A stretch of 64,000 nt of DNA from Chitinophaga pinensis (GTDB taxonomy: Bacteria; Bacteroidota; Bacteroidia; NS11-12g; UBA955), in contig CAMDAF010000001.1 of the NCBI GenBank assembly GCA_945888525.1, positions 160,059 through 224,058 of the forward strand. Reading direction: 5' to 3'. Positions within the stretch are counted from its first letter, which is position 1; each line of letters opens with the position of its first letter. This document shows, in pieces, positions 9,791-44,800 of this stretch. Under the pieces are notes generated by a model that was not told the origin of the DNA, did no database searches, and worked only from the letters and a program-made list of their open reading frames with translations. Both the position numbers and the translations under genes were made by a program.

Positions 9791-11677
9791 ATGAAGGCAT
9801 TATTGCTCATATCGTCTATATTACTTGCACCTCTTTTGCATGCCACAAAAGATGGAGACACTTCTATTTGGAGAAATTTTGAACTTATCGCCAGCAAAGG
9901 GAATCTTAACTCTGGCTCTGTTAAAATCAATTTGCCTAGTGGTCAAGATGGCAGTCTGGCCGATGTGTTAAATAAAAACAGTGCTCTTTTTATTAAATAC
10001 TACAGTCCAGGGAGTTTGGCCAGTTCGTCAATGCGCGGAATGGGAGCTCAACACACAGCAATTTTATGGAATGGAATAAATCTCCAAAGTTGCATGAACA
10101 GTATACTCGACCTGAATCTTTTGCCTATTTTTTTTCTAGACAAAGCCTCGATTGAAACAGGCGCGAACGCCGCTTCTTGTGGAAATGGGGCAATTGCTGG
10201 TGCAATTATCCTCAACAATGAAATTAAAGAAAACCAGAGGGTTTATGGCGAAATTGGTGTTGGTAGTTTTGGACAATTCAATCTTGGTTTTGGCTCCAGT
10301 ATTAAATTGAATAAAATCTTTCTGAATACCCGATTTGTAAGCAGAAAAGCTGATAATGATTTCAAATATTATAATATTTTTAAACCAGACAAACCTAAAG
10401 AAAGACTTCAAAACAACCTGTTTATGCAACATGGTATTATGCAAGAAGCCTCGATAAGTCTAAACAGAAAACATTCATTTTATTTTAACTATTGGTACCT
10501 TGAATCTAAAAGACAACTGCCCTCTGCTATGGGCGTCTCTTTGTTGGCGCAAGAACATCAAGACGATTACAACACGATGGTGCTTTTAAAGCATGACTAT
10601 AAACTAAATCAGAAATCGAGCTTGTTGAATAAAATCGCCTATACCTCTGAAAATATAAATTATTTCAATTTGTTTTATCCAGACGCCTATAATGCTGCAA
10701 AATCCATAATTGTTGAATCGGAATTTAAAACACAATTAAACCGTTCGTTTGAGTTATTAACCTCCTTAAACAACACGCACCAAAAAGCTTGGACAGATGG
10801 ATACCGTTCAGGAATAGAGAGGAATTTAAGCTCTGTTTTTGCAAAATTAACTTGGGTCACTAAATCGCCCAAATTAAAGATTAGTATTGCCGATAGACAA
10901 TTGATTGCCAATTCAGTTTTAGCACCTGTAACCCCTGATTTTGGCGTTGAATTTCAAGCCTCTAAATCTTTAAAAATAAAAGGAAACTCAGCCTATAGCT
11001 TTAGGCTTCCTTCTTTTAACGATTTGTATTGGCAAGGTGGTGGGAATCTGAATTTATTGCCAGAAAAAGGCAAAAAACATGAGTTAAGTGTAGAATTAAA
11101 ATCTAAGAATTTTAAATTAGGGATGACCGGTTTTTACCACCAAGTTGATAATTGGATTTTATGGGTTCCCAGCGGTGGGGCTTCTTCATGGAAGGCCACA
11201 AATGCAAAGGAAATTGAAAGTAAAGGTTTTGAATTAGCCACAGAATGGAAGTATTTAATTAACAGCAATGCTTTTCTTAAATTCTTTGCACGCTACCAAT
11301 TTGTATCGAGTATTAACTCCGATGTATATGGCCCAGACAAATCTATTGTTGGCAAGCAATTGTTTTACACACCTCAACAAACTGGCATTGCCAATATTCA
11401 ATATCTATTTGGTAACAATAAAATCTCTTTAAGTTCTACATTTACCGGTAGTAGATATGCAACTGCAGACAACCACATAGATGGTTTGCTGCCTGCCTAC
11501 ACCTTGTTGAATTTTTCTGTAGCTAGAGATTTTTATTACAAATCTTTTAGGAGTTCCATTGAATTTACGGTCTGCAATCTATTAAACACCAACTATTATG
11601 TGTTTGAAAATAGACCTATGCCACTCAGAAATTATCAAATGACATTTAAATACAACATCAATTATGAACAAAAATAA
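9791..11677 (+). CDS. btuB: TonB-dependent outer membrane receptor, BtuB-like (riboswitch-controlled)
   Basis: 628 aa; signal peptide, plug-domain motifs, long Tyr/Asn/Gly-rich beta-barrel; sits directly downstream of the cobalamin riboswitch. Confidence 0.75.
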   Translation: MKALLLISSILLAPLLHATKDGDTSIWRNFELIASKGNLNSGSVKINLPSGQDGSLADVLNKNSALFIKYYSPGSLASSSMRGMGAQHTAILWNGINLQSCMNSILDLNLLPIFFLDKASIETGANAASCGNGAIAGAIILNNEIKENQRVYGEIGVGSFGQFNLGFGSSIKLNKIFLNTRFVSRKADNDFKYYNIFKPDKPKERLQNNLFMQHGIMQEASISLNRKHSFYFNYWYLESKRQLPSAMGVSLLAQEHQDDYNTMVLLKHDYKLNQKSSLLNKIAYTSENINYFNLFYPDAYNAAKSIIVESEFKTQLNRSFELLTSLNNTHQKAWTDGYRSGIERNLSSVFAKLTWVTKSPKLKISIADRQLIANSVLAPVTPDFGVEFQASKSLKIKGNSAYSFRLPSFNDLYWQGGGNLNLLPEKGKKHELSVELKSKNFKLGMTGFYHQVDNWILWVPSGGASSWKATNAKEIESKGFELATEWKYLINSNAFLKFFARYQFVSSINSDVYGPDKSIVGKQLFYTPQQTGIANIQYLFGNNKISLSSTFTGSRYATADNHIDGLLPAYTLLNFSVARDFYYKSFRSSIEFTVCNLLNTNYYVFENRPMPLRNYQMTFKYNINYEQK

Positions 11678-12695
11678 AATATGCAGTTTCATTGCAGTAG
11701 CGCTAATTGCTTTCTCATCTTGTAAGAAAGACCAAGACCTAAAGGTTGAAACAGAAAATTATAAAGGTGTCTTTGTTGTTAATGAAGGCGGATTTGGAAA
11801 ATCAAATGGAAGTATCGGCCTGTATAAACCTGGGTCAAGAACATATCTCGATGCTTTCAAAAAAGCCAATGGCTTGCCATTAGGCGATGTGGTACAATCT
11901 ATGTCTCTAATTGGGAACAATTTTTACATCGTTGTAAACAATTCAAATAAAATTGAGGTTGTGTCGCAAAGTGAATTCAAATCTGTGAGTACAATTTCAA
12001 CGCCTTCTCCAAGATATGTATTAGATGTATCCTACAACAAAGCTTATGTAAGTAACTTTTACTCCAATTCAATCAAAGTACTAGATCTAAACACTAATAG
12101 TATTTCAAAGTCCATTGAAATATCTCACAACAGCGACCAAATGGCGCTTATGAATAAAAAAGTTTATGTCACCACTTTTGACAATAAATTAATGGTTCTT
12201 AATTCGCTCAACGATGCTATAGTGGATTCAATCGCAACAGCGTCTGGATTAAGTAAAATTGTAAATATTGGGGCTTCAAGACTAGCGGTTCTTTGCACAG
12301 GGGTAGTCGATTGGAACAATGGCAGTGTCATCGAAAATGGAAAAATTCAAATCATCAATCTTGGAAATAGTATTGAAAGTTCGTTTAACTTAAGCTCTGG
12401 TAGTTATGGCGGATCAATGGTATACGTAAGCAACACAGCTCTATTGTATTTTTCTTTGGGAAACAATGTGATTTATAAAATGGATCTTTCAGGAAATATA
12501 TCTGAGTTTAAAACTTTAGAGGCTGGCAGAAACGTTTACAGCTTAACCTATAATTCATCCAATTCAAGTATCTACGTAACCGATGCAGGCGATTTTAACT
12601 CGGCTGGAAAAGTGATGGTATATGACCTTTCGGGAAATAAAACCTTAGAATTTGATGCCGGAATTGCGCCCAATGCGATTTTAATGAACGAATAA
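11664..12695 (+). CDS. Surface lipoprotein with a YncE/DUF5074-like beta-propeller; candidate BtuG-type B12-capturing lipoprotein
   Basis: 343 aa; lipobox (AFSSC), VFVVNEGGFG...NGS motif and repeated blade-like segments; position immediately after btuB, as for btuG in Bacteroidota; overlaps btuB by 14 nt. Confidence 0.5.
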   Translation: MNKNKICSFIAVALIAFSSCKKDQDLKVETENYKGVFVVNEGGFGKSNGSIGLYKPGSRTYLDAFKKANGLPLGDVVQSMSLIGNNFYIVVNNSNKIEVVSQSEFKSVSTISTPSPRYVLDVSYNKAYVSNFYSNSIKVLDLNTNSISKSIEISHNSDQMALMNKKVYVTTFDNKLMVLNSLNDAIVDSIATASGLSKIVNIGASRLAVLCTGVVDWNNGSVIENGKIQIINLGNSIESSFNLSSGSYGGSMVYVSNTALLYFSLGNNVIYKMDLSGNISEFKTLEAGRNVYSLTYNSSNSSIYVTDAGDFNSAGKVMVYDLSGNKTLEFDAGIAPNAILMNE

Positions 12696-13724
12696 TTGAA
12701 GTTCATTTATTGTGCTTTTTGTGTTTTATTCCTAACTGCTTGTAAACCAAATATACAACAGTTAACAATTGAACATCCTATATCTTTTGAAGAAATTGAC
12801 TATTCCAATATGTTTGGAATAGCGAATTTTGATTCTTATTCTCAATTGTTTTTCCTTGATGGAACTGATACCACATGGAGCATTAAAAGTTCTGATCTTC
12901 CTTCAAACCCAAAAATGGTCGTGCTGTCATCAGTTTTTGCTGGTTATGTTGAACTTTTAGAAAAACAAGATCAAATCATTGGCGTTGATAATTATAAATA
13001 TTACTGTGACAGTTTGTTGTTAAAAAGATTTGAGCAACAAAAAACCATAGAAATAGGTGAGGAGGGGCAGCTTAATTTGAGCAAGCTATTGCAGTTGAGG
13101 CCAGATGTTTTGATATGCAGTTCTTTTTCTTCACAAGACCAATCTTTAATTAAACGTTTAAAAAAGTCGGGTATTAAGCTTGTATTCTGCGATAATTTCA
13201 AAGAACAAAATCCTCTGGCCCGCGCAGAATGGATTAAACTATTTGGGTTTTTATTTAACTGCCAAAGCAAAGCCGATAGTTTGTTTGACGGTATAGCGAA
13301 TAGGTATGAAAAACAAATTTCAATTAATAGAGCAAAGTCGTTAAAGCCTCTTGTTTTAACGGATGCCCTTTATTCGGATGTTTGGAATGTTCCGGGTGGC
13401 AATAGTTATACTGCTAAATTAATAGAAGATGCGAATGGCACCTATGTTTTTAAAAATAAAAACGAGTTGTTTTCTTATCCTTTAAGTCTTGAACTTGTGC
13501 TCAAAGCGTCTGAAAATTGCGATATTTGGCTTCATGTAAACCAATATAAAACCAAAGAAGAACTTTTCAAAGCCAATAACAGGTACGCGTTACTAAATGT
13601 GTTCAAACAATCTCGAATTTTCAACAACAACAAAAGGGAAAATAGGTTTGGAGGCAATGGTTTTTGGGAAATAGGGGTCGTTAGGCCTGATTTAGTGCTT
13701 AAAGATTTGATCTCAATTTTTTAA
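12696..13724 (+). CDS. Periplasmic binding protein (class III, BtuF/FhuD-like) lipoprotein
   Basis: 342 aa; lipobox (LTAC); KMVVLSSVFAGYVELL...IIGVD...LRPDVLICS pattern of Peripla_BP_2 cobalamin/siderophore-binding proteins; starts 1 nt after the upstream stop. Confidence 0.6.
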   Translation: MKFIYCAFCVLFLTACKPNIQQLTIEHPISFEEIDYSNMFGIANFDSYSQLFFLDGTDTTWSIKSSDLPSNPKMVVLSSVFAGYVELLEKQDQIIGVDNYKYYCDSLLLKRFEQQKTIEIGEEGQLNLSKLLQLRPDVLICSSFSSQDQSLIKRLKKSGIKLVFCDNFKEQNPLARAEWIKLFGFLFNCQSKADSLFDGIANRYEKQISINRAKSLKPLVLTDALYSDVWNVPGGNSYTAKLIEDANGTYVFKNKNELFSYPLSLELVLKASENCDIWLHVNQYKTKEELFKANNRYALLNVFKQSRIFNNNKRENRFGGNGFWEIGVVRPDLVLKDLISIF

Positions 13725-13790
13725 AATTCAAATATTTCTGATGAGAAATTTTATTTTTATACCCGCGTCGATTAGATTTGCATTTTAATC

Positions 13791-15185
13791 GTGCTGTTTA
13801 ACTCCTGGATATTTTTTCTGTTCCTTCCGCTGGTCTTTGCAGCAGTTTACTCTATTCCTCAAAAGTATAGATGGATTGTCCTTCTTGTTGCATCTTACAT
13901 TTTTTATGGTTGGTGGAAAGCAGAATTTCTTTTAATCATTGCTTTCTCAACCGTATTGGATTATTTCTGTGCACTGAAAATTGAAGACTCCCCCAATCAA
14001 TTTATAAGAAAAAGATGGCTAACTCTAAGTTTAGGTATTAACCTTGGTATACTGTTTTTATTCAAGTATTTTTATTTCTTCATCGGCAGTACCTCATGGA
14101 TGCAAGATCTAGTTAGTCCGCACCAAACACTAAAAGGCCTTCTCGATTTTTTGGGTAAGTCGCTGCCAGTTGGTATTTCATTCTATACCTTCCAAACCAT
14201 GAGTTACACACTGGATGTTTATTACAAAAGGGCCAAACCAGAGAGGCATCTTGGGCAGTTTGCACTTTTTGTGTCGTATTTTCCACAACTGGTAGCTGGA
14301 CCTATTGAACGTTTTAAGCATCTAAATGAGCAATTGAAAGTTGAGCATAAATTAGTATATAAAAATTTGCAGTTAGGCTTTAGACTTATGCTTTACGGTT
14401 TTTTTGTAAAAATGGTTATAGCCGACAATCTTTCTTATACCGTTAGCTCTATTTTTAACGACCCTGGTAAGTGGAAATATTACTGGAATATCATTGGTGT
14501 TTTGAGCTTTGGTTTTCAAATTTACGCCGACTTCTTTGGTTATTCATTAATTGCCCAAGGTGTAGCAAAATTATTTGGCATTGAATTAATGGACAATTTT
14601 AACCGTCCTTACCTCTCTGCTAATATTAGTGAATTTTGGAAACGCTGGCATATTTCTTTGAGTACCTGGTTTCGCGATTATGTATACATTCCATTGGGTG
14701 GAAATAGAGTGTCTCACTCTAAATGGATACTAAACATTATGTTGGTTTTTGTTTTGAGTGGATTATGGCATGGTGCCAATTACACCTTCTTGATTTGGGG
14801 CACTTTGCATGGTGTCTTTTATCTTGTTGAACGTTTCTTCCCATTCTCATTGAAATTTAAATGCTTAAATGTATTGATTACATTTTTTGCAGTATCTTTT
14901 GCTTGGATATTCTTTAGAGCCGAAAATTTAGAACAGGCAATTCAAGTAATAAATGGTTTGCTTGGTGGTCTAGACGGACAAAGGCACTTGGATACACAGC
15001 CCTATATTTTCCTATTGTTATTGATTTTTGGAGTTTTAGAATTAGCCCGGGGAAACAAACGCTTCGATCAATTTTGTGCCTCTTATTCTGGCATTCAACG
15101 GTGGACGCTCTATTGCTTTTTAATCTTTTGTATTCTCACCGTTTGTGGTTCAGAATACAGTGCTTTTATTTATTTTAAATTCTAA
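13791..15185 (+). CDS. MBOAT-family membrane O-acyltransferase (AlgI/DltB/PatA-like)
   Basis: 464 aa polytopic; N-terminal MLFNS..F..F.P.....Y.......R......AS..FYGWW... and the conserved His in [24 protein letters not shown]. Confidence 0.85.
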   Translation: [464 protein letters not shown]

Positions 15186-16210
15186 TGGAAGTAAACATCA
15201 AACATATAAGCTTTAAAGTATTGGCCTTGGCATTGACGGTTTCAATAAGCGCTTTTGTTTACAAAAAAATATATTGGGTTCCTGAGCTCAAAGACCAAGG
15301 TCCAATGTTGTTTAACCTCCTGGAATTTGAATGGCACAATGATGTTTTATATCTTGGAGAGTCTTCAAACTATTGGATTGCACCTGAAGACCAAGACAAA
15401 CGAACCATAAGCGACATGATCAATGACAGTTTGCCAGGCTTTAGATTAAGTGGAATGCAGGTTCCTGCTTACCATGCAGGCATGTTTCTTCCAATTGTAA
15501 ATATGATTGATCCTGCAAGCAGAGTAAAGCATTTGGTTGTTACGATGAATCTAAGGTCATTCGACAAGCCGTGGATATTGTCTACCCAAGAAGGTGCTTT
15601 GATGCGTGCAAAATGTTTCTATTACAACAGCAATCCAATTTACAATAGAATGTGCGCTGCCCTGGGCTACTATGAAAATCCTAGTGCTGAGTCGCAAGAC
15701 AAGAAAATGCTAGAAGCCTTTGAATTCGATACGTTGAAAGTTGATTTTCCATTGCAATTTAAGACCATCAAACGTTGGTGCGAGCAAGAGAAATTTCCAT
15801 TGCCACAAGGGGGTGAAGATTTTCCTAAAAGAGAGTTGGCCGACCATTACATCAAAGCGTATGCCTTTCAAATCGATACCAATACCAATCCAAGAATTAA
15901 AGATTTTGATGCCATCGTAAAGGTTTGCAAACAAAAAAACATCAAATTGTATTTTAATCTAATGGCTGAAAATATTGAATGGGCAGACAGTTTGGTCGGT
16001 AAAGAATTGGTCTATTTTATGAAAGCTAACCGAGATTTGTTGCTTGCCCGTTATAGCAGCATGGGTGTTGTAATGGTCGATAATTTAGAATCTGTTCCTG
16101 GTGGGTATTTCGGTGAAAAGAATTGGACGACCGAGCATTACAATCAATTTGGACGTCTGATTGTTGCTAGGAATGTCGCAAATTCATTAAAGAAAAATCT
16201 AAAACGTTAA
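15185..16210 (+). CDS. Membrane-anchored partner protein of the MBOAT (AlgJ/DltD/PatB-like, SGNH-like fold suspected)
   Basis: 341 aa; single N-terminal TM anchor; GESS (GDS-like) motif near the N-terminus and a TEHY motif near the C-terminus resembling the AlgJ DTHW motif; start overlaps the MBOAT stop (TAATG). Confidence 0.35.
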   Translation: MEVNIKHISFKVLALALTVSISAFVYKKIYWVPELKDQGPMLFNLLEFEWHNDVLYLGESSNYWIAPEDQDKRTISDMINDSLPGFRLSGMQVPAYHAGMFLPIVNMIDPASRVKHLVVTMNLRSFDKPWILSTQEGALMRAKCFYYNSNPIYNRMCAALGYYENPSAESQDKKMLEAFEFDTLKVDFPLQFKTIKRWCEQEKFPLPQGGEDFPKRELADHYIKAYAFQIDTNTNPRIKDFDAIVKVCKQKNIKLYFNLMAENIEWADSLVGKELVYFMKANRDLLLARYSSMGVVMVDNLESVPGGYFGEKNWTTEHYNQFGRLIVARNVANSLKKNLKR

Positions 16211-16328: not shown

Positions 16329-18527
16329 ATGCAAAAAATATATTTTCTAAGCGTTTTATTATTGCTTCACATAGCCGGCTATGCACAAAATTCAAGCTTA
16401 CCTATTCAAAATGAGGATTCCAGTATAAACGATATAAACTCGGTTATCGTTCGTTCAAAAAGTGATGGGTTATTTAAAAGTATAGCAGGTTCAGTCGCAA
16501 CCTTGTCGATGGCCGAAATTAAAAGATCTAACCCAATTTCCGCAAATGAAATGTTTAGAAAGATTTCTGGTGTTCATGTTGTGGATGAGGAGGGTGCTGG
16601 CATGCGCATAAATATAGGCATGCGCGGTATGGATCCAGATCGAAGCAGAGGTGTATTGGTTTTAGAAGACGGAATACCTGTTTCTTTAAATCCTTATGGC
16701 GAACCAGAGATGTATTACAGTCCTGTAATAGATCGAATGTCTGGACTAGAAGTCTTGAAAGGCAGTGGTCAAATTATGTTCGGACCACAAACGATAGGGG
16801 GTGTGGTAAATTACATTACAATGAACCCTACACCAAAACAATCATTGCGATTTAAGCTCGGCATCGGTGAGGGTGGATTTAAGTCTACTTTGCTTAATTA
16901 CAGCAATTCATTTGAGAAATTAGGCATTGTTGCAACATTATTGCACAAACAGGCAGATAAATTAGGCTATGCAAAATTTGGAATAACAGATTTTAGCACA
17001 AAATTAGTCTACGATTTCAACAGGAATACCAAACTCATAGTAAAAATTGGCTTGTATAATGAATTGTCAAATTCTACATATATTGGTTTAACACAAACCA
17101 TGTATGACCAAGGTGGGCAAGATTTTGTTTTGATGGCGCCCGACGACCGTTTAGACATTAAAAGGTATTCTTTAAGCGCTTCCTTTAACAAAAATATAAG
17201 TAAAAAACTTAAGTTCAATACCACAATTTATGGATACACAACCAGTAGAAATTGGCAAAGACAAGATTTTTCATCAAGCAAAACAGCTTCAAAACTAACA
17301 GGTGTTATATGGGGCGATAGCAGTTTGCCAAATGGAGCTGTATTTATGCGAAACTCAAATGCCCATCGAAATAGGCAATTTGAGGTTTTAGGTTCTGAAT
17401 CAAAACTTTTATATCTATACCAGTTGTGGAATGTAAAATCAGAACTAAATGTAGGTGTGAGATACCTTTTTGAAAGGGCTATTGAACAAAGGCTAAATGG
17501 AAAGAAACTTGACTCTAGAACTGGAGATTTGGTAGAAGATGAGATTAGAACAGGTAATGCTTTTAGTGCATATGCACAGAACAAAATGAATTTATCAAAA
17601 AAGTTCATACTTTCATTTGGCCTAAGATTAGAATCTTACAACTACCAAAGGAACATATTTAGAAATACGTTTTTAATTAACAATGTTTCTAAATTGCTTG
17701 ACACAAATCTATTGGCCAGCAATGAAATATTAACACTTATTCCGGGTGCAGGAATTAATTATCAAATGTCTAAGAATTTGACAGTATTTGGTGGTATTCA
17801 CAAAGGCTATGCACCACCGAGGGTAAAAGATGCCATTACCAGTTCAGGTCAAGTTTATCAATTGGATGCGGAAAGCAGTTGGAATTATGAGTTGGGATTG
17901 AGAGGTGCGTTTAAAAAGGTTTTGTCCTATGAATTTACAGGGTTTTATATGGATTTTAGCAATCAAATTATACCTGTCTCCGAGTCTTCAGGTGGCACTG
18001 GTGCAGGACTGATAAATGGCGGTGAAACCATACACAAGGGCCTCGAATTGTCCTATAATGTAAAATTATCTGATTGGTTTAAAACAAAATCTAAAATCGT
18101 TTTTAGCAACAACATAACATATGTTAAAGCATACTTTTCTGAGGATAGATATGTAAAAGATGGTACCGTAAATGTCAATATAAATGGCAATAAAACACCT
18201 TACGCTCCTGGATATTATCTCAACTATGCTTTGAATTATGAAACAAAATTTAATTTAGGATTCCTTTTTAGTGCCAACTATACCGGTAGCCAATTTGGTG
18301 ATGTGCTCAATACTGAATTGCCGTCTTTGGATGGCAGAATTGGCAAAATTAAAGACTATTCGGTATACGATTGCAACCTCTATTATAATGCAAGTAAATT
18401 AAAAACAACCTTTAGCTTTACCATTAAAAATATCTTTGACGAACGTTATATCGTTTCTAGAAGACCTCAAGGCATAAGGGTTGGCCTACCAAGGTACTTT
18501 ATGGGTACTATTCAGATTGACTTGTAA
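16329..18527 (+). CDS. TonB-dependent outer membrane receptor
   Basis: 732 aa; signal peptide, plug-domain motifs (ATLSMAEIKRSNPISANEMFRKISGV, VLEDGIPVS), long beta-barrel. Confidence 0.8.
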   Translation: MQKIYFLSVLLLLHIAGYAQNSSLPIQNEDSSINDINSVIVRSKSDGLFKSIAGSVATLSMAEIKRSNPISANEMFRKISGVHVVDEEGAGMRINIGMRGMDPDRSRGVLVLEDGIPVSLNPYGEPEMYYSPVIDRMSGLEVLKGSGQIMFGPQTIGGVVNYITMNPTPKQSLRFKLGIGEGGFKSTLLNYSNSFEKLGIVATLLHKQADKLGYAKFGITDFSTKLVYDFNRNTKLIVKIGLYNELSNSTYIGLTQTMYDQGGQDFVLMAPDDRLDIKRYSLSASFNKNISKKLKFNTTIYGYTTSRNWQRQDFSSSKTASKLTGVIWGDSSLPNGAVFMRNSNAHRNRQFEVLGSESKLLYLYQLWNVKSELNVGVRYLFERAIEQRLNGKKLDSRTGDLVEDEIRTGNAFSAYAQNKMNLSKKFILSFGLRLESYNYQRNIFRNTFLINNVSKLLDTNLLASNEILTLIPGAGINYQMSKNLTVFGGIHKGYAPPRVKDAITSSGQVYQLDAESSWNYELGLRGAFKKVLSYEFTGFYMDFSNQIIPVSESSGGTGAGLINGGETIHKGLELSYNVKLSDWFKTKSKIVFSNNITYVKAYFSEDRYVKDGTVNVNINGNKTPYAPGYYLNYALNYETKFNLGFLFSANYTGSQFGDVLNTELPSLDGRIGKIKDYSVYDCNLYYNASKLKTTFSFTIKNIFDERYIVSRRPQGIRVGLPRYFMGTIQIDL

Positions 18528-19108
18528 TGTTTTGTTGGTTTAAATCTTTTTTAACTAATATTGCTTTAGTGAAAAAGTTCATTTTATATTCTGTTTTTTT
18601 TACTGCAATAAGTTGTGCTCTATTTGCATGCAATCAAGCATCTTCATTTACATTGTTGTCGGGTACAAAAATCACTTTGAATTCAAAATTGTGTGTTTAT
18701 ATTTTTCTAAATTCAGAATGTCCCATTTGTCAAAAATACCAAGGGACTTTTAAGTCAATGGAATTAGATAGTGTGCAAGTTTACTATGTTTTTCCAGGTT
18801 TACAAAGCAAAGAAATGATCAAAGAAATGTGTGAATTTGATTCTATCAGTTTTAACCGTGTTATCCTAGACTCAGATTATAGATTAACCAAACAATTGAA
18901 AGCGCATACGACTCCGGAGGCAATCATCATAAAGGACAATAAAACATATTACAGTGGTTTGATTGACGACCGTTTCACCTCAATTGGTACATCAAAATCA
19001 AGTGCAAGTATAAATTATATTGAGAATGCACTAAATTCGCTGCATAAAAATGAAGCCATTAAAATACCATATACCAAAGCTGTTGGTTGTTTTATTGAGC
19101 CTAATTAG
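18527..19108 (+). CDS. TlpA-like thioredoxin-fold thiol-disulfide oxidoreductase (membrane-anchored or lipoprotein)
   Basis: 193 aa; N-terminal hydrophobic anchor; CPIC (CxxC) redox motif; C-terminal TPEAIIIKDNKTYYSGLIDD resembling the TlpA/ResA signature; start overlaps the TBDR stop (TAATG). Confidence 0.5.
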   Translation: MFCWFKSFLTNIALVKKFILYSVFFTAISCALFACNQASSFTLLSGTKITLNSKLCVYIFLNSECPICQKYQGTFKSMELDSVQVYYVFPGLQSKEMIKEMCEFDSISFNRVILDSDYRLTKQLKAHTTPEAIIIKDNKTYYSGLIDDRFTSIGTSKSSASINYIENALNSLHKNEAIKIPYTKAVGCFIEPN

Positions 19109-20420
19109 TATTGTTTGGAATGCCTGCAGCCTAAAACCGGTTCCAAACTTTGCAAAAGATATTGCCCCAATTATTCACAGCAAATGTTCTCCTTGCCACC
19201 ATAAAAATGGCACAGCCCCTTTTTCATTAATGACATACAATGACGTATCAAAGAGAGCAAAAATGGTTGCTTTTGTTACAGCTAAAGCTTATATGCCTCC
19301 TTGGCCTGCAGACCATAATTACAGTCATTTTTTAAATGAAAGGGTTTTGTCTGATTTTGAAAAAGAACAAATTCAAAATTGGTTTAAAAACAAATGTCCT
19401 AAAGGTGATTTGTCTGCTTTGAAGTATCCCAATTTTGAAAACAATCTGTCTTCACTTGGTAAGCCAGATTTAATATTGAGCTTTCAAGACATTGAAATTT
19501 TCAATGACAATAAAGACCGTTTTTATGTACTTAAATTGCCTTATCAAATGAACCAAGAGCGCTATGTTAGAGCTTTGGAATTTATTCCAGGGCAATACCA
19601 ATATGCCCACCATGTCAATGGACATTACTTAAGGTTTTCAGATGAAAGCAATCCATTCTCGGGCCTAATGAAAACCGATATCGAATCGGCCAACTATTCA
19701 AAAGAATTTATGGAAATGAATTTAGTGAATGCCGATGGCAGTATTCCTTTTCGTGTGCATTCGGCTGTCAATTATTTGCCAGGAGCCTACGGGGTTAAAT
19801 ATCCAAAAGGAATTGGCGGTTTTTTGATGGGCAAGAAAGGGGCTTTTGTCGCCAATGATTTTCACTTTGGTCCCTCGCGCAAACATTTAATTGACAGTTC
19901 TAAAATCTATGTTTACTTTTCAGACCAAGCGCCTCAGCGGGCAACCTATGAATTGATGATGGGCACCAATGGTGTTTCTGAAATTACCCCTGCGCTGATC
20001 GTTCAAGCAAATACCATTAGTAAACATGTGTCCAAATTGACCATTTACAACGACATCTCAATATTAACGGTTAACCCTCACATGCATTTAATCGGCAAGT
20101 CTGTTAAAGCCTATGCCTTAAAGCCAAATGGGGATACTCTGAAATTAATTTCAATCCCTAAGTGGCAATTTCGTTGGCAATATTTTTACACCTACCAATC
20201 GCCTCAAAAAGTACCAAAAGGAAGTACCATTGTTTTAGAAGCAATATTTGACAACACCTTAAAAAATCCCAATAACCCCAATAATCCGCCGAAAACAATA
20301 AGTGAACGATTTGAGAATGCTGGCGCAAGTATGCGCACCACAGATGAAATGCTTCAGTTCATTATCACATATATGCCGTATCAAAAAGGGGATGAATTAA
20401 TTGACCTATCCAAACCATGA
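19050..20420 (+). CDS. Exported fusion protein: N-terminal single-heme cytochrome c domain (PSCyt-like) plus a PHM/DBH-like type II copper monooxygenase domain
   Basis: 456 aa. Signal peptide/lipobox (IVWNACS). A CxxCH motif sits in the context IAPIIHSKCSPCHHKNG...MPPWPAD. In the C-terminal part, an HH pair (AHHVNGH), further single His residues, an HxH in NPHMHLIGKS (compare HTHLxG of PHM/DBH) and TTDEMLQFIITYMPY (compare the DEMCNLYIMYY CuM Met region of PHM). Confidence 0.5.
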   Translation: MKPLKYHIPKLLVVLLSLISIVWNACSLKPVPNFAKDIAPIIHSKCSPCHHKNGTAPFSLMTYNDVSKRAKMVAFVTAKAYMPPWPADHNYSHFLNERVLSDFEKEQIQNWFKNKCPKGDLSALKYPNFENNLSSLGKPDLILSFQDIEIFNDNKDRFYVLKLPYQMNQERYVRALEFIPGQYQYAHHVNGHYLRFSDESNPFSGLMKTDIESANYSKEFMEMNLVNADGSIPFRVHSAVNYLPGAYGVKYPKGIGGFLMGKKGAFVANDFHFGPSRKHLIDSSKIYVYFSDQAPQRATYELMMGTNGVSEITPALIVQANTISKHVSKLTIYNDISILTVNPHMHLIGKSVKAYALKPNGDTLKLISIPKWQFRWQYFYTYQSPQKVPKGSTIVLEAIFDNTLKNPNNPNNPPKTISERFENAGASMRTTDEMLQFIITYMPYQKGDELIDLSKP

Positions 20421-21061
20421 AATCGCTAAAACCTTTATTTATTTTATTTATTATTCTCCTGTCATTGGTTGTATTTCTGATGTATGCTCTACCTGTCTTA
20501 AAACCTGGTAAATTTTTTGGACCCGGCGATACCCGCGGGGGCAAGGAAATGGTAATTAAAAACTATGGAGCTGCTATCGATAGTGCGGCCAATGTATTTG
20601 GTCTATCAGCTTCCTATCTTAAAGCTTTATGTATGCTGGAATGCAGCGGCAAGAAGAAGTTCCAAGCACGTTTTGAAGACCATGTTTACCGCAAATTAAA
20701 AAAAGTCAAATTCAAACAATTAAGCAATTATGAGCATGTTACACCTGAAATGTTGCAAGATGCAAACGATGAAGCTTTGAGAAATTTAGCCAGCAGCTGG
20801 GGGCCATTTCAGTTAATGGGGTATAAATGTCTATTGTTGAACATTAAAATTAGAGACATTCGCGGAGATCAAGCCGTTTATTATGGTGCAAAATGGATAG
20901 ATTTAACCTATGGGGAAACTTTGAAGGAAAAGAAATTCAAGGATGCATTTCACATTCATAATACAGGTTCTCCATTCCCTGACAATGGGCGCGCAAAAAC
21001 CCATGATCCCAATTATTGCAACAATGGCTTGAAATATATAGATTGGTTTAATAAGCACTAA
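20417..21061 (+). CDS. Lysozyme-like / lytic transglycosylase (SLT)-like domain protein with an N-terminal TM anchor
   Basis: 214 aa; LKALCMLECSG (E-S catalytic-type motif), WGPFQLMGY (a GLMQ-type motif) and AVYYGAKWIDL; start overlaps the upstream stop (ATGA). Confidence 0.4.
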   Translation: MKSLKPLFILFIILLSLVVFLMYALPVLKPGKFFGPGDTRGGKEMVIKNYGAAIDSAANVFGLSASYLKALCMLECSGKKKFQARFEDHVYRKLKKVKFKQLSNYEHVTPEMLQDANDEALRNLASSWGPFQLMGYKCLLLNIKIRDIRGDQAVYYGAKWIDLTYGETLKEKKFKDAFHIHNTGSPFPDNGRAKTHDPNYCNNGLKYIDWFNKH

Positions 21062-38004: not shown

Positions 38005-41000
38005 TTGGCAACAAAAGTAAAACAACCAAAAAGAATCAATTTCGCATCAATCGATAAAGTAATTGATTATCCGGATTTCCTTGACGTGCAATTGCAATCT
38101 TTTAAAGAGTTCTTTCAACTGGAAACCCACGTTGATAAAAGAACTGACGAAGGTCTATTCAAGGTTTTTCAGGAAAATTTTCCTATAAACGATACTAGAA
38201 ACATCTTCAACTTAGAATTTTTAGACTATTTTGTTGACCCACCTCGATACGAGATTACTGAATGTATCGAAAGAGGCCTCACTTATTCTGTGCCTCTAAA
38301 AGCCAAACTAAAACTTTCTTGTAACGATCCGGAACATGAAGATTTTGAAACCATCGTTCAAGATGTTTATTTAGGTACAATTCCATACATGACACCAAGC
38401 GGTACCTTTGTAATCAATGGTGCCGAAAGAGTTATTGTTTCTCAGCTACACCGTTCACCTGGTGTATTCTTTGGTCAATCGTACCACACCAATGGAACTA
38501 AATTGTATTCAGCCCGTGTAATTCCTTTTAAAGGTTCATGGATTGAATTTGCTACTGACGTAAACAACGTTATGTACGCATATATAGACCGTAAAAAGAA
38601 ATTTCCTGTAACTACTTTACTTAGAGCAATTGGATTTGAGTCTGACAAAGACATCTTAAACATATTTGGTCTAGCTGAAGAAGTTAAAGTTTCTAAAACC
38701 GGTCTCAAAAAATTTGTAGGCAGAAAACTATCTGCAAGAGTTTTGCGCACTTGGGTTGAAGATTTTGTGGATGAGGATACTGGAGAGGTTGTATCTATTG
38801 AACGTAACGAAGTTATAATCGAACGCGATACAATTCTTGAAGCTTCTCATATCGATGAAATCGTTGAAGCAGGTGTAAAAACAATTATCCTAAACAAAGA
38901 AGAAGAAGGAAAAAATGATTTCACCATCATTTACAATACTCTACAAAAGGATACTTCTAACAATGGTAAAGAAGCAGTTGAGCATATTTACCGTCAATTG
39001 AGGAATACTGATCCACCAGATGAAGAAACAGCTCGTGGTATTATTGAAAGATTGTTCTTTTCCGATAAACGTTATGATTTAGGTGAAGTTGGTCGTTATA
39101 GAATCAACAAAAAGTTAAATCTTACCACCGGAATGGAAGTTAAAGTTTTAACGAATGAAGACATCATTAAAATTATAACTTACCTAATCGAACTAAGCAA
39201 TAGCCGTTCTGAAGTCGATGATATTGACCACTTAAGTAACAGACGTGTAAGAACAGTTGGAGAGCAATTGTATGCTCAATTTGGTGTTGGTTTAGCCCGT
39301 ATGGCTAGAACCATTCGTGAGAAAATGAATATCCGTGACAATGAAGTATTTACGCCGACTGATTTAATCAATGCGCGTTCATTGTCATCTGTAATAAATT
39401 CATTCTTTGGTACCAACCAATTATCTCAGTTCATGGACCAAACAAATCCATTGGCTGAAATAACCCACAAAAGAAGAATGTCAGCACTTGGACCAGGTGG
39501 TCTTTCACGTGAAAGAGCTGGTTTTGAGGTACGTGACGTACACTATACGCACTATGGTCGTTTATGTACGATTGAAACTCCAGAGGGTCCAAACATCGGT
39601 TTGATTTCATCTCTTTGTGTGCATGCAAAAATTAACAGTATGGGATTCATTGAAACACCATACAGACCTGTAGAAAATGGCCGTGTTAATTTCGCAAAAC
39701 CTGTTGTTTATCTTAGTGCAGAAGAGGAAGATGGCAAAATCATCGCCCAATGTAATGTCGATATCAGCGAAAAAGGTGAATTCAAAGAAAAGGAAATCAA
39801 GGCACGTTTTGAAGGTGACTTCCCGCTTGTAGAAGCTGAGAAATTAAATTTCATGGACGTTGCTCCAAACCAGATTGTTTCTATCGCGGCCTCTTTGATT
39901 CCTTTCCTTGAGCATGATGATGCGAACAGGGCTTTGATGGGATCAAACATGCAACGTCAAGCAGTTCCTTTGTTAAGACCTGAATCTCCAATTGTTGGAA
40001 CAGGTCTTGAAGAGAGAGTTGCAAGAGATTCGCGCGCATTAGTTATGGCCGAAGGTGATGGTGTTGTAGATTATGTTGATGCAAATGAAATCAAAATTCG
40101 TTATGACTATACAGCTGATGATGAATTGTTGAATTTTGCTAGCAATATTAAGACTTATGCATTAACTAAATTCTTAAGAACCAACCAAAGCACTTGTATT
40201 AACCTAAGACCAATCGTAAGCAAAGGTCAGAGGGTAAGCAAAGGTGAAGTTTTATGTGAAGGTTATGCAACACAAGATGGAGAATTAGCGATTGGAAGAA
40301 ACTTGAAAGTTGCATTCATGCCTTGGCAAGGATACAACTTCGAGGATGCGATCGTTATATCTGAAAAAGTAGTTAGCGACGATTGGTATACTTCAATTCA
40401 CATTGATGAATTCGAATTGGAAGTGCGTGATACCAAACGCGGTGAAGAAGAATTAACCAATGATATTCCTAACGTTAGTGAAGAAGCTACAAGAAACTTA
40501 GATGAAAATGGTCTAATTAGAATTGGCGCTGAATTAAAAGAAGGTGATATCATTATCGGTAAAATAACACCAAAAGGTGAAACTGAACCTTCTCCAGAAG
40601 AGAAATTGTTGAGGGCTATCTTTGGTGATAAAGCTGGTGATGTCAAAGATGCTTCATTGAAAGCGCCACCATCAACTGAGGGTATCGTTATCGATAAAAA
40701 ATTATTCACTAAAACCAAAAAAGAAAAAGGCGCAAAAACTGAGGAAAAAGCTAAATTAGCTAAGAACGAAGTTGATTACAGAAAGAATAAAGAAAAATTA
40801 ATTGAAATTTTGGTTCAAAAATTATTCAAAGTTCTTAATGGCAAAACTTCTGCTGGTGTTAAAGCCGTTTATGGTGATGACATGATTCCTAAAGGAACCA
40901 AATTCACGCTTAAAAACCTTTCTTCTGTAGATTACGATAACGTAAACTTTGGAAGTTGGACTTCTGATGCGGATAAAAACGTTCAGGTTAATACCATTCT

Positions 41001-41820
41001 TAAAAACTTTAAGTCTCAATTAACTGAACTTTATGCTTCATTTAGACGTGAATATTATGCCATAACTGTAGGCGATGAATTGCCAACTGGTATTTTGAAA
41101 ATGGCTAAAGTTTATGTTGCAGTAAAACGTAAATTAAAAGTAGGTGATAAGATGGCGGGAAGACACGGTAACAAAGGTATTGTTGCCCGTATTGTTCGTG
41201 CTGAGGATATGCCTTTCTTAGAAGATGGAACTCCAGTAGATATCGTATTGAATCCACTAGGTGTGCCTTCAAGGATGAACTTGGGTCAAATTTATGAGAC
41301 CGTATTAGGTTGGGCAGGAAAAGAATTAGGTTTGAAATTTGCTACGCCAATTTTTGATGGAGCAACTCCAACTCAAATAGATGAGTATAGCAAACAAGCC
41401 AATATTCCAATCAATGGCCAAGTATTCTTATACGATGGATTAACAGGTGATCGATTCCACCAACCGACGACTGTAGGCATTATCTATATGCTGAAGTTGG
41501 GCCACATGGTTGATGATAAGATGCACGCCCGTTCAATCGGACCGTATTCAATGATTACCCAACAGCCTCTAGGTGGTAAAGCACAATTTGGTGGCCAGCG
41601 TTTTGGTGAAATGGAGGTTTGGGCACTTGAAGCATTCGGTGCAGCAAATATCTTAAGAGAAATCTTAACCATTAAGTCAGACGATATCTTGGGTCGATCT
41701 AAAACATACGAAGCTATTGTTAAAGGTGATAACATTACCCAAATTGGAATTCCTGAATCATTCAATGTACTAATACATGAATTAAGAGGTTTGGGTATCG
41801 AAATGACCTTTGAAGAATAG
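38005..41820 (+). CDS. rpoB: DNA-directed RNA polymerase beta subunit
   Basis: 1271 aa; conserved beta-subunit blocks are present, including [11 protein letters not shown] and NMQRQAVPL. Confidence 0.98.
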
Positions 41821-41858: not shown

Positions 41859-44800
41859 ATGTCAACGATTAAAAAGAATCAAAAGATAAAAAGCAATTTC
41901 ACCAAAATCCGAATTGGTCTTGCTTCTCCTGAAAGTATTTTACAAAAATCTTTTGGTGAAGTAATCAAGCCGGAAACAATCAACTACCGTAGTTACAAAC
42001 CTGAAATGGGTGGATTATTCTGTGAAAGAATTTTCGGACCTATTAAAGACTACGAATGTCATTGTGGAAAATACAAACGTATCCGTTACAAAGGCATCGT
42101 TTGCGACCGCTGTGGTGTTGAGGTAACTGAGAAAAAGGTGAGACGCGAGAGAATGGGTCACATCAATTTGGTGGTGCCTGTTGCGCATATTTGGTATTTC
42201 CGCTCATTGCCAAATAAAATTGGCTATTTGTTGGGTCTAAGCAGTAAAAAATTAGATTTAGTAGTTTACTACGAAAGATACATTGTTATTCAAAGTGGTG
42301 AATATGAAGGAATCAACAGATTAGATTTGCTATCTGAAGAAGAATATCTAGATATTTTAGATAAACTTCCTAAGGAAAATCAATATTTAGATGATTCTGA
42401 TCCTAAAAAGTTTGTAGCCAAAATGGGTGCAGATGCATTATGGGAACTATTAACCAGTATTGATTTAGATGGTTTAAGTTACAGTTTGAGAAACCAAGCA
42501 GCAACAGAAACATCTCAACAACGTAAAGCTGAAGCATTGAAACGTTTGAAGGTAATTGAAAGTTTCAGATCGGCTAATAGAGAAGGAAACGTTAACCGTC
42601 CGGAATGGATGATTATGCGTATGCTTCCTGTTATTCCGCCAGAATTACGTCCGTTAGTTCCGCTTGAGGGTGGTCGTTTTGCGACATCAGACTTAAACGA
42701 TTTATACCGTCGCGTAATTATAAGAAACAACCGTTTGAAGCGTTTAATGGAAATTAAGGCTCCAGAGGTAATCTTGCGCAACGAAAAAAGGATGCTACAA
42801 GAGTCTGTTGATTCATTGTTAGACAACACAAGAAGATCGAGCGCCGTTAAATCTGATGGCAACAGACCATTAAAATCTTTAAGTGATATGCTTAAAGGTA
42901 AACAAGGTCGTTTCCGTTTAAATTTATTGGGTAAACGTGTTGACTATTCTGGTCGTTCAGTTATTGTCGTAGGACCTAAACTTAAATTAAGTGAGTGTGG
43001 TCTGCCAAAAGCGATGGCTGCAGAATTGTTCAAGCCATTTATTATCAGAAAACTGATAGAAAGAGGTGTTGTAAAAACGGTTAAGTCAGCTAAGAAAATA
43101 GTAGACAAAAAAGAACCAGTAATTTGGGAAATTCTTGAAAATATTTTGAAAGGTCATCCTGTTCTCCTTAACCGTGCTCCTACATTGCACAGATTGGGTA
43201 TACAAGCTTTCCAACCAAAACTAATTGAAGGAAAAGCAATTCAGTTGCACCCATTGACTTGTACTGGTTTTAACGCTGACTTTGATGGTGACCAAATGGC
43301 TGTTCACGTTCCACTTGGAAATGCAGCAATATTGGAAGCCCAATTGTTGATGTTAGCGCCACACAATATCTTGAACCCTGCAAATGGATCGCCAATTACA
43401 GTTCCATCTCAAGACATGGTGCTTGGTCTTTATTACATTACCAAGGGAAGAAAAAACACACCTCAAAAATTAGTTAAAGGTGAAGGTATTACGTTTTATT
43501 CTCCAGAGGAAGTAATCATTGCTTTAAATGAAGGAAAGGCAGACTTACACGCCCACATAAAATGTAAATTATTGGATAAAGATGGCAATGGCAATTTTAC
43601 TTACCAGTTAATTGAAACAACTGTTGGCCGTGTATTGTTTAACCAAGTTGTTCCAGAAGGTGTGGGATACATCAACCAATTGTTGACTAAGAAATCATTG
43701 CGTGATATCATCAGCAACTTTGTTAAAGAAGTTGGTGTTGCTAGAACCTCTAAATTCTTGGATGATATCAAAGACTTAGGTTTCCATTATGCATTTAAAG
43801 GTGGTTTATCGTTTAACTTAAACTATGTTCAAATACCTGATGCTAAAGAAAAACTAATCGATCAAGCTAGATCTGAAGTTGAAGAAATCAAATTCAATTA
43901 CGAGAATGGATTTATCACCAACAATGAACGTTACAACCAAGTAATCGATATTTGGACAAGAATTAACTCTCAAGTGGGTGAAATTCTATTAAAAGAATTG
44001 GCTGAAAACGACCAAGGATTTAATCCGATTTATATGATGCTTGACTCTGGTGCGAGGGGTTCTAAAGAACAAATTCGTCAGTTAGGTGGAATGAGGGGAT
44101 TGATGGCAAAACCACAAAAGAATATTGGTGGTGGTGTCGGTGAAATCATTGAAAATCCAATCTTATCAAACTTTAAAGAAGGTTTATCTGTATTAGAGTA
44201 TTTCATTTCTACCCACGGTGCGCGTAAGGGTCTTGCCGATACAGCGTTAAAAACTGCGGATGCTGGTTATTTGACTAGAAGATTGCATGATGTTGCTCAG
44301 GATGTAATTATCACTGAACACGATTGTGATACGCTAAGAGGATTGTCATTAACTGCTTTGAAAGACAACGATGATGTTGTAGAAAGTTTATACGAACGCA
44401 TATTAGGTAGAACTGGTTTATACGATACCTTCCATCCTGAAACTGGTGCTTTAATTGTTGCTGCAGGTTCTGAAATTACTGAAGAAGTTGCTAGAGAAAT
44501 AGAAAGTTCTGGTATTGAAGAAATGGAAATACGTTCAGTTTTAACTTGCGAAACCAAAAGTGGAGTTTGTTCTAGATGTTACGGACGTAACCTAACCAAC
44601 GGAAGAATGGTTCAAATCGGGGAGGCTGTGGGCGTAATTGCTGCACAATCAATCGGTGAGCCAGGTACACAGTTAACACTTCGTACTTTCCACGTGGGTG
44701 GTACTGCATCTAGTATTGCCGCTGAATCTCAAATCGTTTCTAGATTTGATGGAATAGTAAGTTTTGATGAGCTTAAAACGGTAACAACTGAAAAAACTGA

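Follow-up and report, generated by a model that had tools for sequence, protein, structure and literature searches.

We describe an exported bacterial lipoprotein and putative enzyme, encoded in a 64,000-nucleotide stretch of DNA (the window), in which a lipoprotein signal and a monoheme cytochrome c domain precede a two-copper core resembling that of peptidylglycine alpha-hydroxylating monooxygenase (PHM) and dopamine beta-hydroxylase (DBH), which in animals serve to make amidated peptide hormones and noradrenaline, respectively. The folds of both parts, the cofactor ligands and their conservation, the export signals, and the linkage and fusion of the enzyme to a partner gene are all directly supported. 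We consider it moderately probable that the protein is a self-contained PHM/DBH-type (noncoupled binuclear copper) monooxygenase that receives its electrons through the tethered heme c and not from ascorbate. An earlier note on this DNA, made from the letters alone, had described the same combination of parts; we confirm that observation, and its interpretation as a heme c plus PHM/DBH-like copper monooxygenase is supported.

According to a published account (PMC4846438), the PHM/DBH class is small, with four enzymes that occur only in eukaryotes. The family described here comprises 16,843 clusters at 50% identity, and a relative occurs in at least 595 species genomes. Source databases name its members “hypothetical protein” or “cytochrome c.” The earlier note took the architecture to be uncharacterized, and indeed the literature yields eukaryotic members only: no paper on prokaryotic members was found in open-access full text or bioRxiv, although a description in a subscription journal is possible.

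Heme c domain and copper core of the enzyme

The open reading frame had been placed exactly by the earlier note, and all the motifs quoted there lie inside it (Table 1). We compared the protein with a close alignment of 42 sequences (47 to 86% identity) and with two further sets, namely, 80 species loci and 150 representatives clustered at 50% identity. Ten putative cofactor residues (C46, C49, H50, M82, H187, H188, H272, H344, H346, and M434) are invariant in the 42-sequence alignment, and every complete sequence from the 80 species loci retains them. With hundreds of genomes keeping all ten unchanged, chance is ruled out.

TABLE 1 Features of the enzyme gene and neighboring genes, with positions in the window
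Feature	Position	Strand	Evidence or conservation
FecA-like TonB-dependent receptor, first gene of local four-gene run	16329..18527	+	Pfam Plug and barrel; PDB FecA 1pnz, 7e-29
Conserved partner, thioredoxin-fold lipoprotein, 193 aa	18527..19108	+	Cys65 in CP(I)C, cis-Pro130, Cys188 in VGCxIE
Whole enzyme gene: lipoprotein signal, monoheme cytochrome c domain, PHM/DBH-like two-copper core, 456 aa	19050..20420	+	
Signal peptide up to lipobox Cys26, MKPLKYHIPKLLVVLLSLISIVWNAC	19050..19127	+	Sequence reading; Cys26 in 79/79 complete close relatives
Monoheme class-I-type cytochrome c domain, about residues 30-125	19137..19424	+	
CxxCH heme c attachment motif, C46-S-P-C49-H50	19185..19199	+	Invariant in close set; 144/144 diverse representatives
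MPPWPAD motif (within YMPPWPAD), M82	19293..19313	+	M82 invariant in close set; 147/147 diverse representatives
CuH (electron-transfer) domain, about residues 138-295	19461..19934	+	
H187-H188, PHM CuH ligands H107-H108 by alignment	19608..19613	+	Invariant in close set; 147/149 and 146/149 diverse representatives
H272 (in NDFHFGP), PHM CuH ligand H172 by alignment	19863..19865	+	148/150 diverse representatives
CuM (O2-binding, catalytic) domain, about residues 296-445	19935..20384	+	Pfam Cu2_monoox_C, hhalign
H344-x-H346 (NPHMHLIGK), PHM CuM ligands H242 and H244 by alignment	20079..20087	+	150/151 and 150/151 diverse representatives
M434 in DEM motif (TTDEMLQF), PHM CuM ligand M314 by alignment	20349..20351	+	136/138 diverse representatives
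Membrane-anchored protein, 214 aa	20417..21061	+	Start overlaps enzyme stop by 4 nt

The signal peptide claimed by the earlier note is present but is of the lipoprotein type, with its lipobox Cys26 kept in every complete close relative. In the wider family Cys26 is not conserved, and many members carry a type IX secretion system (T9SS) tail instead; T9SS secretion was found for 36 of 85 relatives. With either a lipobox cysteine or, in relatives, a T9SS tail, the enzyme sits where heme c gets attached and where ascorbate is not expected. We thus propose that the protein encoded in the window is an exported, periplasm-facing lipoprotein.

The N-terminal domain combines a single CxxCH motif, as the earlier note had stated, with a signal peptide and lipobox cysteine, as expected of an exported c-type cytochrome. 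Its fold is that of a cytochrome c in which Met or His serves as the distal ligand, here probably the invariant M82. Among solved structures, PccH has the nearest fold. Curated Pfam cytochrome c models matched the window protein below their cutoff of 27 bits (Haem_bd, 16.2 bits; Cytochrome_CBB3, 13.4 bits), and Cytochrome_CBB3 is passed by some relatives (P0171, 34.1 bits; P0183, 37.1 bits). The description of this domain as PSCyt-like did not survive the Pfam scan, in which no PSCyt model matched at an E value of ≤1, and we rejected that assignment.

The remainder of the protein is a two-domain beta-sandwich of the type that forms the catalytic core of the copper type II ascorbate-dependent monooxygenases (PHM, DBH, tyramine beta-hydroxylase [TBH], and MOXD1). 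The match to models of this group anticipated by the earlier note was obtained for the catalytic domain, with Cu2_monoox_C aligned over residues 301 to 404 at 27.3 bits (curated cutoff, 23). The N-domain model, Cu2_monooxygen, gave no match to the window protein at an E value of ≤1 in Pfam; it was matched by 23 of 85 relatives at an E value of ≤1e-3 (best, 5.6e-12), and P0253 reached 34.1 bits (cutoff, 30). Single-sequence phmmer against the PDB returned nothing relevant, so that solved relatives had to be sought by profile and fold. The whole-family profile against the PDB returned weak cytochrome matches only, and hhalign of the enzyme with PHM gave an E value of only 2.7e-4, at 41% probability. 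The lack of an N-domain match, the cytochrome scores below cutoff, and this hhalign result weigh against the monooxygenase reading.

In the alignment to rat PHM, whose sequence was verified against PDB 5wm0_A, the six candidate ligands land on H107, H108, H172, H242, H244, and M314, as the earlier note had supposed. All six are at least 97% conserved among the 150 representatives, and further cleft residues (NYLPG, GTNG, FRWQYFYT, and NPNNP) are invariant in the 42-sequence alignment. The spacings H188-H344, H188-H272, and H346-M434 are 156, 84, and 88 residues, compared with 134, 64, and 70 in PHM. The first agrees with the earlier claim for HH to HxH; the distance from HxH to Met had been given as about 84, which reaches only the start of TTDEM.

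Although PHM is the closest solved structure and has an identical ligand set, we regard it as very improbable that the enzyme is a true bacterial PHM that amidates the C termini of secreted peptides. PHM holds the glycine carboxylate and the backbone of its peptide substrate with R240, N316, and Y318; these align to N342, Q436, and I438, and the three positions vary across the family. Furthermore, identity to PHM is 14 to 17%, and neither a nearby lyase resembling peptidylglycine amidating lyase (PAL) nor a precursor-peptide gene is conserved in a neighbor survey of the 80 species loci.

The thioredoxin-like partner and other neighboring genes

The sole broadly conserved neighbor of the enzyme gene encodes a thioredoxin-like protein, which the earlier note had overlooked. 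Its gene overlaps that of the enzyme by 59 nt, and it is present in 69 of 80 species, mostly on the same strand and directly upstream. The same module occurs in the cultured Chondrinema litorale WSW3-B12 (WP_284688968.1 and WP_284688969.1). In three proteins (P0167, P0274, and P0293) the partner is fused N-terminally to the enzyme, in the same order as the genes, and in P0183 the whole partner-enzyme unit is duplicated in tandem and fused 1:1. The partner probably belongs to the same redox machine as the enzyme.

PDB profile searches matched the partner to 2ywi_A (5.9e-8) and 2cvb_A (8.2e-6). Its AlphaFold model (pLDDT, 91.2) has a helix beginning at residue 66, and Foldseek ranked 2cvb, 2ywo, 3u5r, and 2ywi first, followed by ResA, StoA, and TlpA. 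The partner thus has a thioredoxin fold in which the active-site cysteine caps the N terminus of helix 1 and a loop carries the cis-Pro; C65, P66, and P130 are invariant, and so is Cys188, in a GC motif. The window protein has CPIC as its CxxC motif, but relatives may carry C, A, or S at the second cysteine position, and the fused forms have S or A there.

A thioredoxin fold next to a heme protein could also belong to a biogenesis factor, either a Sco/TlpA-like chaperone for Cu(I) or a ResA/CcsX-like protein that reduces the CxxCH of the apocytochrome; the only donors of catalytic electrons to the heme would then be soluble respiratory cytochromes or quinol-linked ones, and the identity of the enzyme would be unchanged. 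Sco copper chaperones do use the thioredoxin fold, and ResA, StoA, TlpA, and DsbF come next after the uncharacterized 2cvb/2ywi/3u5r group among the structural matches of the partner model. We nevertheless consider this variant of our preferred reading improbable: maturation factors are not usually fused permanently and 1:1 to their targets or duplicated with them as one unit, the second CxxC cysteine needed by ResA-type reductases is often Ala or Ser here, and the partner lacks a Sco-type CxxxC plus His motif.

The other neighbors are much less constant. In this genome the enzyme gene comes after that of a TonB-dependent receptor within four closely packed genes, and TonB-dependent copper importers exist (PMC12914433), so a non-catalytic copper-binding or trafficking protein tied to TonB-dependent metal uptake can be envisaged. 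That role is highly doubtful, as the receptor is FecA-like, just 8 of 87 loci, all from close relatives, link it to the enzyme, and a complete two-site catalytic ligand set plus heme exceeds what a chaperone needs. On the same grounds (best solved relative FecA; linkage in 8/87 loci) we rejected identification of the receptor as a CrtA-type copper importer (PMC12914433).

The 214-aa protein encoded downstream is present only in relatives of at least 58% identity. For this protein Pfam gave only a sub-threshold Muramidase match and the PDB none, and we do not count it as part of the system, given the lack of informative homology and conservation confined to close relatives. In 24 of 80 loci the gene immediately downstream belongs to a 369-aa family of GNAT acetyltransferases; its position was judged to reflect shared gene order, and a functional link to the enzyme was rejected. 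A promoter and terminator scan, which does not model Bacteroidota promoters, found no more than expected by chance.

Proposed electron route and significance

Chemistry of the PHM/DBH type requires two one-electron deliveries via CuH (PMC4846438). In the mechanism that we prefer, a periplasmic reductant would pass electrons singly to an N-terminal His/Met heme c (C46xxC49H50, M82), from which they would move to CuH (H187, H188, and H272) and then across a solvent cleft to CuM (H344, H346, and M434). There O2 would bind, and a C-H bond would be hydroxylated in a substrate other than a glycine-extended peptide. Candidate reductants are the co-encoded thioredoxin-fold lipoprotein, acting via its Cys65/Cys188 pair, or a respiratory-chain cytochrome. 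We infer the occupancy of the sites by heme and copper, the direction of electron flow, the monooxygenase chemistry, and the kind of substrate.

It is reasonable to suppose that heme c would serve as the built-in electron donor for the copper sites, and the periplasmic location together with a tethered heme would argue for a donor other than ascorbate. The partner and its fusions suggest a relay from thiol to heme to copper; to our knowledge, none has been described before. With two possible electron-input modules, thiol and heme, the electron route is ambiguous.

The same three modules could work in the reverse sense, as a thiol oxidase or oxygen reductase in which oxidation of Cys65/Cys188 sends electrons through heme c and the two coppers to O2, yielding H2O2 or water. 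Such a protein would generate periplasmic disulfides or handle O2 and reactive oxygen species, and no organic substrate would be hydroxylated. The thiol protein is the sole conserved partner, fused 1:1 even in the tandem duplicate; only two of its cysteines are conserved, suggesting one redox pair; and no candidate substrate-supplying gene is conserved near the enzyme. We still find a thiol oxidase unlikely. A tightly coupled hydroxylase, and not a simple oxidase, is what a CuM site with Met, a CuH site with all its ligands, and the numerous invariant residues of the cleft would fit, and O2 reduction is coupled to substrate hydroxylation in the known members of the class (PMC4846438). In addition, among the T9SS-secreted relatives (36/85), the T9SS-tailed P0196, P0209, and P0253, which were scanned individually, carry no fused thiol domain.

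Extending the monooxygenase reading to the whole family, we propose a very large bacterial class, chiefly in Bacteroidota, of extracytoplasmic noncoupled binuclear copper monooxygenases, a proposal whose chances we judge to be evenly balanced. In this class the thiol module, the c-type heme, and CuH/CuM would form one electron chain wired to cellular redox pools and not to ascorbate, and each subfamily would have its own substrate pocket and its own location, as a periplasmic lipoprotein or a T9SS-exported surface enzyme. If so, many hydroxylations of envelope or environmental substrates may await discovery, and a prokaryotic origin of the PHM/DBH fold would be implied.

If a bacterial version with a built-in heme holds, the PHM/DBH class would be abundant in prokaryotes and would include a form for which expression in bacteria, with no need for glycosylation, is possible in principle. 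There is continuing debate on the way in which electron transfer between two coppers separated by more than 11 Å is coupled to hydroxylation of a C-H bond, and the heme would offer an optical and redox handle with which to trigger and follow single-electron delivery to CuH. Bacteroidota break down much of the organic matter in marine, freshwater, and soil environments, and the enzyme would point to unknown oxidative chemistry in their periplasm and on their cell surface.

Comparison with known systems

Compared with PHM, the catalytic core of PAM (PDB 1PHM, 1SDW, and 5WM0), the enzyme is bacterial and lipid anchored, shares only 14 to 17% identity, and carries an N-terminal heme c domain. It has N342, Q436, and I438 at the peptide-site positions R240, N316, and Y318, it lacks a PAL partner, and a thioredoxin-like partner takes the place of ascorbate and cytochrome b561. 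Relative to DBH, TBH, and MOXD1 (PDB 4ZEL), its accessory domain is a c-type cytochrome and not a DOMON domain, and there is no dimerization domain. PccH, a monoheme cytochrome c of Geobacter sulfurreducens (PDB 4RLR), is a free-standing periplasmic carrier, whereas the corresponding domain here is tethered to an enzyme; the sequence match between them is below significance.

For the partner, both profile and fold match the thioredoxin-fold proteins 2YWI (Geobacillus), 2CVB/2YWO (Thermus), and 3U5R (Sinorhizobium), which we take to belong to the CDD group PRX_like1, and Y-x-G-x-(I/L)-D-D and G-C-x-I motifs are shared. Unlike these proteins, the partner is a lipoprotein that is genetically coupled or fused to a heme-copper enzyme, and it can do without the second cysteine of its CxxC motif. 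Functional analogues of the whole system are the cytochrome c-fused copper nitrite reductases and the cytochrome domain of cellobiose dehydrogenase, which reduces the copper of lytic polysaccharide monooxygenases (LPMOs). Their copper folds are unrelated (cupredoxin and LPMO), and they differ in heme type and chemistry, but they share the logic of a tethered or partner heme domain that feeds single electrons to an extracytoplasmic copper site.

Domain architecture of the enzyme

The earlier note had proposed, from sequence alone, a c-type cytochrome fused to a PHM/DBH-like copper monooxygenase, and all of the motifs that it quoted are found in a 456-aa ORF (the enzyme) at exactly 19050-20420 (+). 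Given an alignment of 42 homologues (47-86% identity), AlphaFold returned a confident model (pLDDT 86.7, pTM 0.77) in which an N-terminal four-helix domain is followed by two beta-sandwich domains. The top 31 matches of this model in the PDB were all PHM or DBH (Foldseek; E ~1e-12, probability 1.0, 330-370 aligned columns), followed only by unrelated jelly-roll capsids at E >1e-4. In a Pfam search, Cu2_monoox_C passed its curated cutoff over residues 301-404 (27.3 bits versus 23), as the proposal anticipated, and the N-domain model Cu2_monooxygen did not match the enzyme. Among the many residues invariant across the 42 homologues are C46, C49, H50, M82-P-P-W-P-A, H187, H188, H272, H344, H346, and D432-E-M434. 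Predicted fold, putative ligands, and the C-domain match together place the core in the type II copper monooxygenase superfamily. In fold and motif the N-terminal domain matches c-type cytochromes, yet it passes no curated cytochrome model, the Pfam models Haem_bd and Cytochrome_CBB3 scoring below threshold.

The same note held this architecture to be uncharacterized, and our searches of open-access full text and bioRxiv preprints for prokaryotic literature on these Pfam families or on “noncoupled binuclear copper” enzymes likewise returned eukaryotic work only. No NCBIfam family covers the enzyme, and databases name the protein “hypothetical,” “c-type cytochrome,” or “mono/diheme cytochrome c family protein”; the domain matches are already present in precomputed annotations. 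As far as could be found, the architecture is detectable yet uncharacterized.

A large family with variable export signals

Searched with a profile, 1.84 billion cluster representatives yielded 16,843 clusters at E<=1e-3, of which 9,768 remained at E<=1e-10 and 2,550 at E<=1e-30. At least 595 species genomes encode a relative. Across 80 species genomes, the heme and copper ligands and lipobox Cys26 are kept wherever the sequence is complete. In a more diverse sample, the best 150 of the 16,843 clusters (~25-45% identity with the query), C46, C49, and H50 are present in 144/144 sequences and M82 in 147/147, with each copper ligand conserved at >=97%. Pfam models matched in 85 representatives (E<=1e-3) included Cu2_monoox_C (57), the T9SS sorting domain Por_Secre_tail (36), Cu2_monooxygen (23; best E, 5.6e-12), and AhpC-TSA, a fused thioredoxin-like domain (4). 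Given these ligands and counts, the pairing of heme c with a PHM-like core is both constant and abundant in bacteria, and it is predicted to reach either the periplasm (as a lipoprotein, as in the window) or the cell surface. Por_Secre_tail terminates a large subclass of ~510-535 aa and longer (P0196, P0253, and P0209 among them), sometimes with PKD or Ig domains, which implies putative cytochrome c-copper enzymes exported to the Bacteroidota cell surface. Other relatives carry four matched stretches of the core with EF-hand motifs (P0171, 1064 aa) or a C-terminal Kunitz/BPTI domain (P0219, 775 aa). The interest lies with this very large unstudied family, of which the window gene is an ordinary member.

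Gene order, the thioredoxin-like partner, and a proposed electron supply

The window carries rpoB and rpoC and is therefore chromosomal; at ~35-37% G+C, it comes from a low-GC member of the Bacteroidota. Freshwater metagenome assemblies contain identical or near-identical copies of the enzyme, and among the matches listed the nearest genomes are uncultured Bacteroidota MAGs.

Window positions of the enzyme gene and surrounding features
Feature	Position	Strand	Product or remark
Second uptake-type cluster	9791-16210		TonB-dependent receptor, DUF5074, Peripla_BP_2 binding protein, MBOAT acyltransferase, 341-aa protein
FecA-like TonB-dependent receptor	16329-18527		First of four head-to-tail genes
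Thioredoxin-like lipoprotein (partner)	18527-19108	+	193 aa
Partner/enzyme overlap	19050-19108		59 nt, different reading frames
Enzyme	19050-20420	+	456 aa
214-aa protein	20417-21061		N-terminal membrane helix; last of four
rpoB	38005-41820		
rpoC	41859-46178		

The four head-to-tail genes overlap by 1, 59, and 4 nt, respectively. In the 59-nt overlap, one frame encodes the partner's invariant VGCxIE tail and the other the enzyme signal peptide; at least 14 related loci show an overlap of 58-59 nt as well, which suggests that translation of the two genes is coupled and that both frames are constrained. The 214-aa gene, probably translationally coupled to the enzyme via the 4-nt overlap, occurs in 12/87 loci, only with relatives >=58% identical; its product has no PDB relative and, in Pfam, a sole sub-threshold match to N-acetylmuramidase. 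The receptor is found in 8/87 loci, close relatives only, and this weak linkage disfavors a copper-trafficking role. The second uptake-type cluster also lies upstream of a 63%-identical relative (L004).

Unbiased clustering of neighboring genes across 80 species identified the thioredoxin-like gene as the only broadly conserved neighbor (69/80 species, position -1 or -2, same strand, sometimes two copies). The pair is present in Chondrinema litorale, a cultured strain of the Cytophagales, where its members are annotated “redoxin domain-containing protein” and “hypothetical protein”; there it lies on a 163-kb plasmid (L088; NZ_CP111057.1, 1047-10774), flanked by a gene for cytochrome c peroxidase on one side and by porU, which encodes the T9SS sortase, on the other. 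The partner's profile matches the uncharacterized thioredoxin-fold proteins 2ywi_A (5.9e-8) and 2cvb_A (8.2e-6), by motifs common to all, and its model (pLDDT 91.2) lies nearest to 2cvb, 2ywo, 3u5r, and 2ywi, then ResA, StoA, and TlpA. Conserved residues are C65-P66, cis-Pro130, Y142-x-G144-x-x-D-D, and G187-C188, the second CPxC cysteine being C, A, or S among relatives. The module is fused N-terminally to the enzyme, in gene order, in P0167, P0274, and P0293, and P0183 (1251 aa) carries all three modules (thioredoxin-like, cytochrome c, PHM-like) twice, as a tandem duplication of the complete unit; these fusions retain only the CP and GC cysteines, with a ~15-25-residue linker to the heme domain. 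In L031, L032, and L076, the partner forms the C-terminal part of a larger upstream ORF (362-451 aa).

PHM/DBH turnover requires two single electrons via CuH, the electron-transfer copper, normally from two ascorbates (PMC4846438). Because the enzyme is exported and a one-electron heme carrier immediately precedes the CuH domain, CuH would, on the simplest reading, receive its electrons directly from heme c instead of from ascorbate. More speculatively, since the thiol module is tightly associated, sometimes fused, and retains one conserved cysteine pair, it may be a two-electron entry point whose electrons the heme would split into one-electron steps. The same association could instead reflect reverse electron flow, as in a thiol oxidase or O2 reductase, or a partner acting solely as a maturation factor.

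Comparison with PHM

The class is defined by a three-His CuH site and a two-His-plus-Met CuM site (PMC4846438). We aligned the family profile to rat PHM (rat PAM residues 36-356 as in PDB 5wm0_A, canonical numbering) with hhalign (245 aligned columns; E 2.7e-4, modest significance taken alone). The six predicted copper ligands fall on those of PHM, in keeping with the original proposal: H187 and H188 pair with H107 and H108 and H272 with H172 (CuH), and H344 and H346 pair with H242 and H244 and M434 with M314 (CuM). Positions 342, 436, and 438 vary in the best 150 of the 16,843 clusters, which suggests that substrates may differ between subfamilies. Despite the shared ligands, true PHM activity is disfavored, as the pocket residues differ and a lyase partner is lacking, and the enzyme failed as PHM proper: the PHM substrate anchors R240, N316, and Y318 are replaced by N342, Q436, and I438, so it does not strictly qualify as a peptidylglycine hydroxylase.
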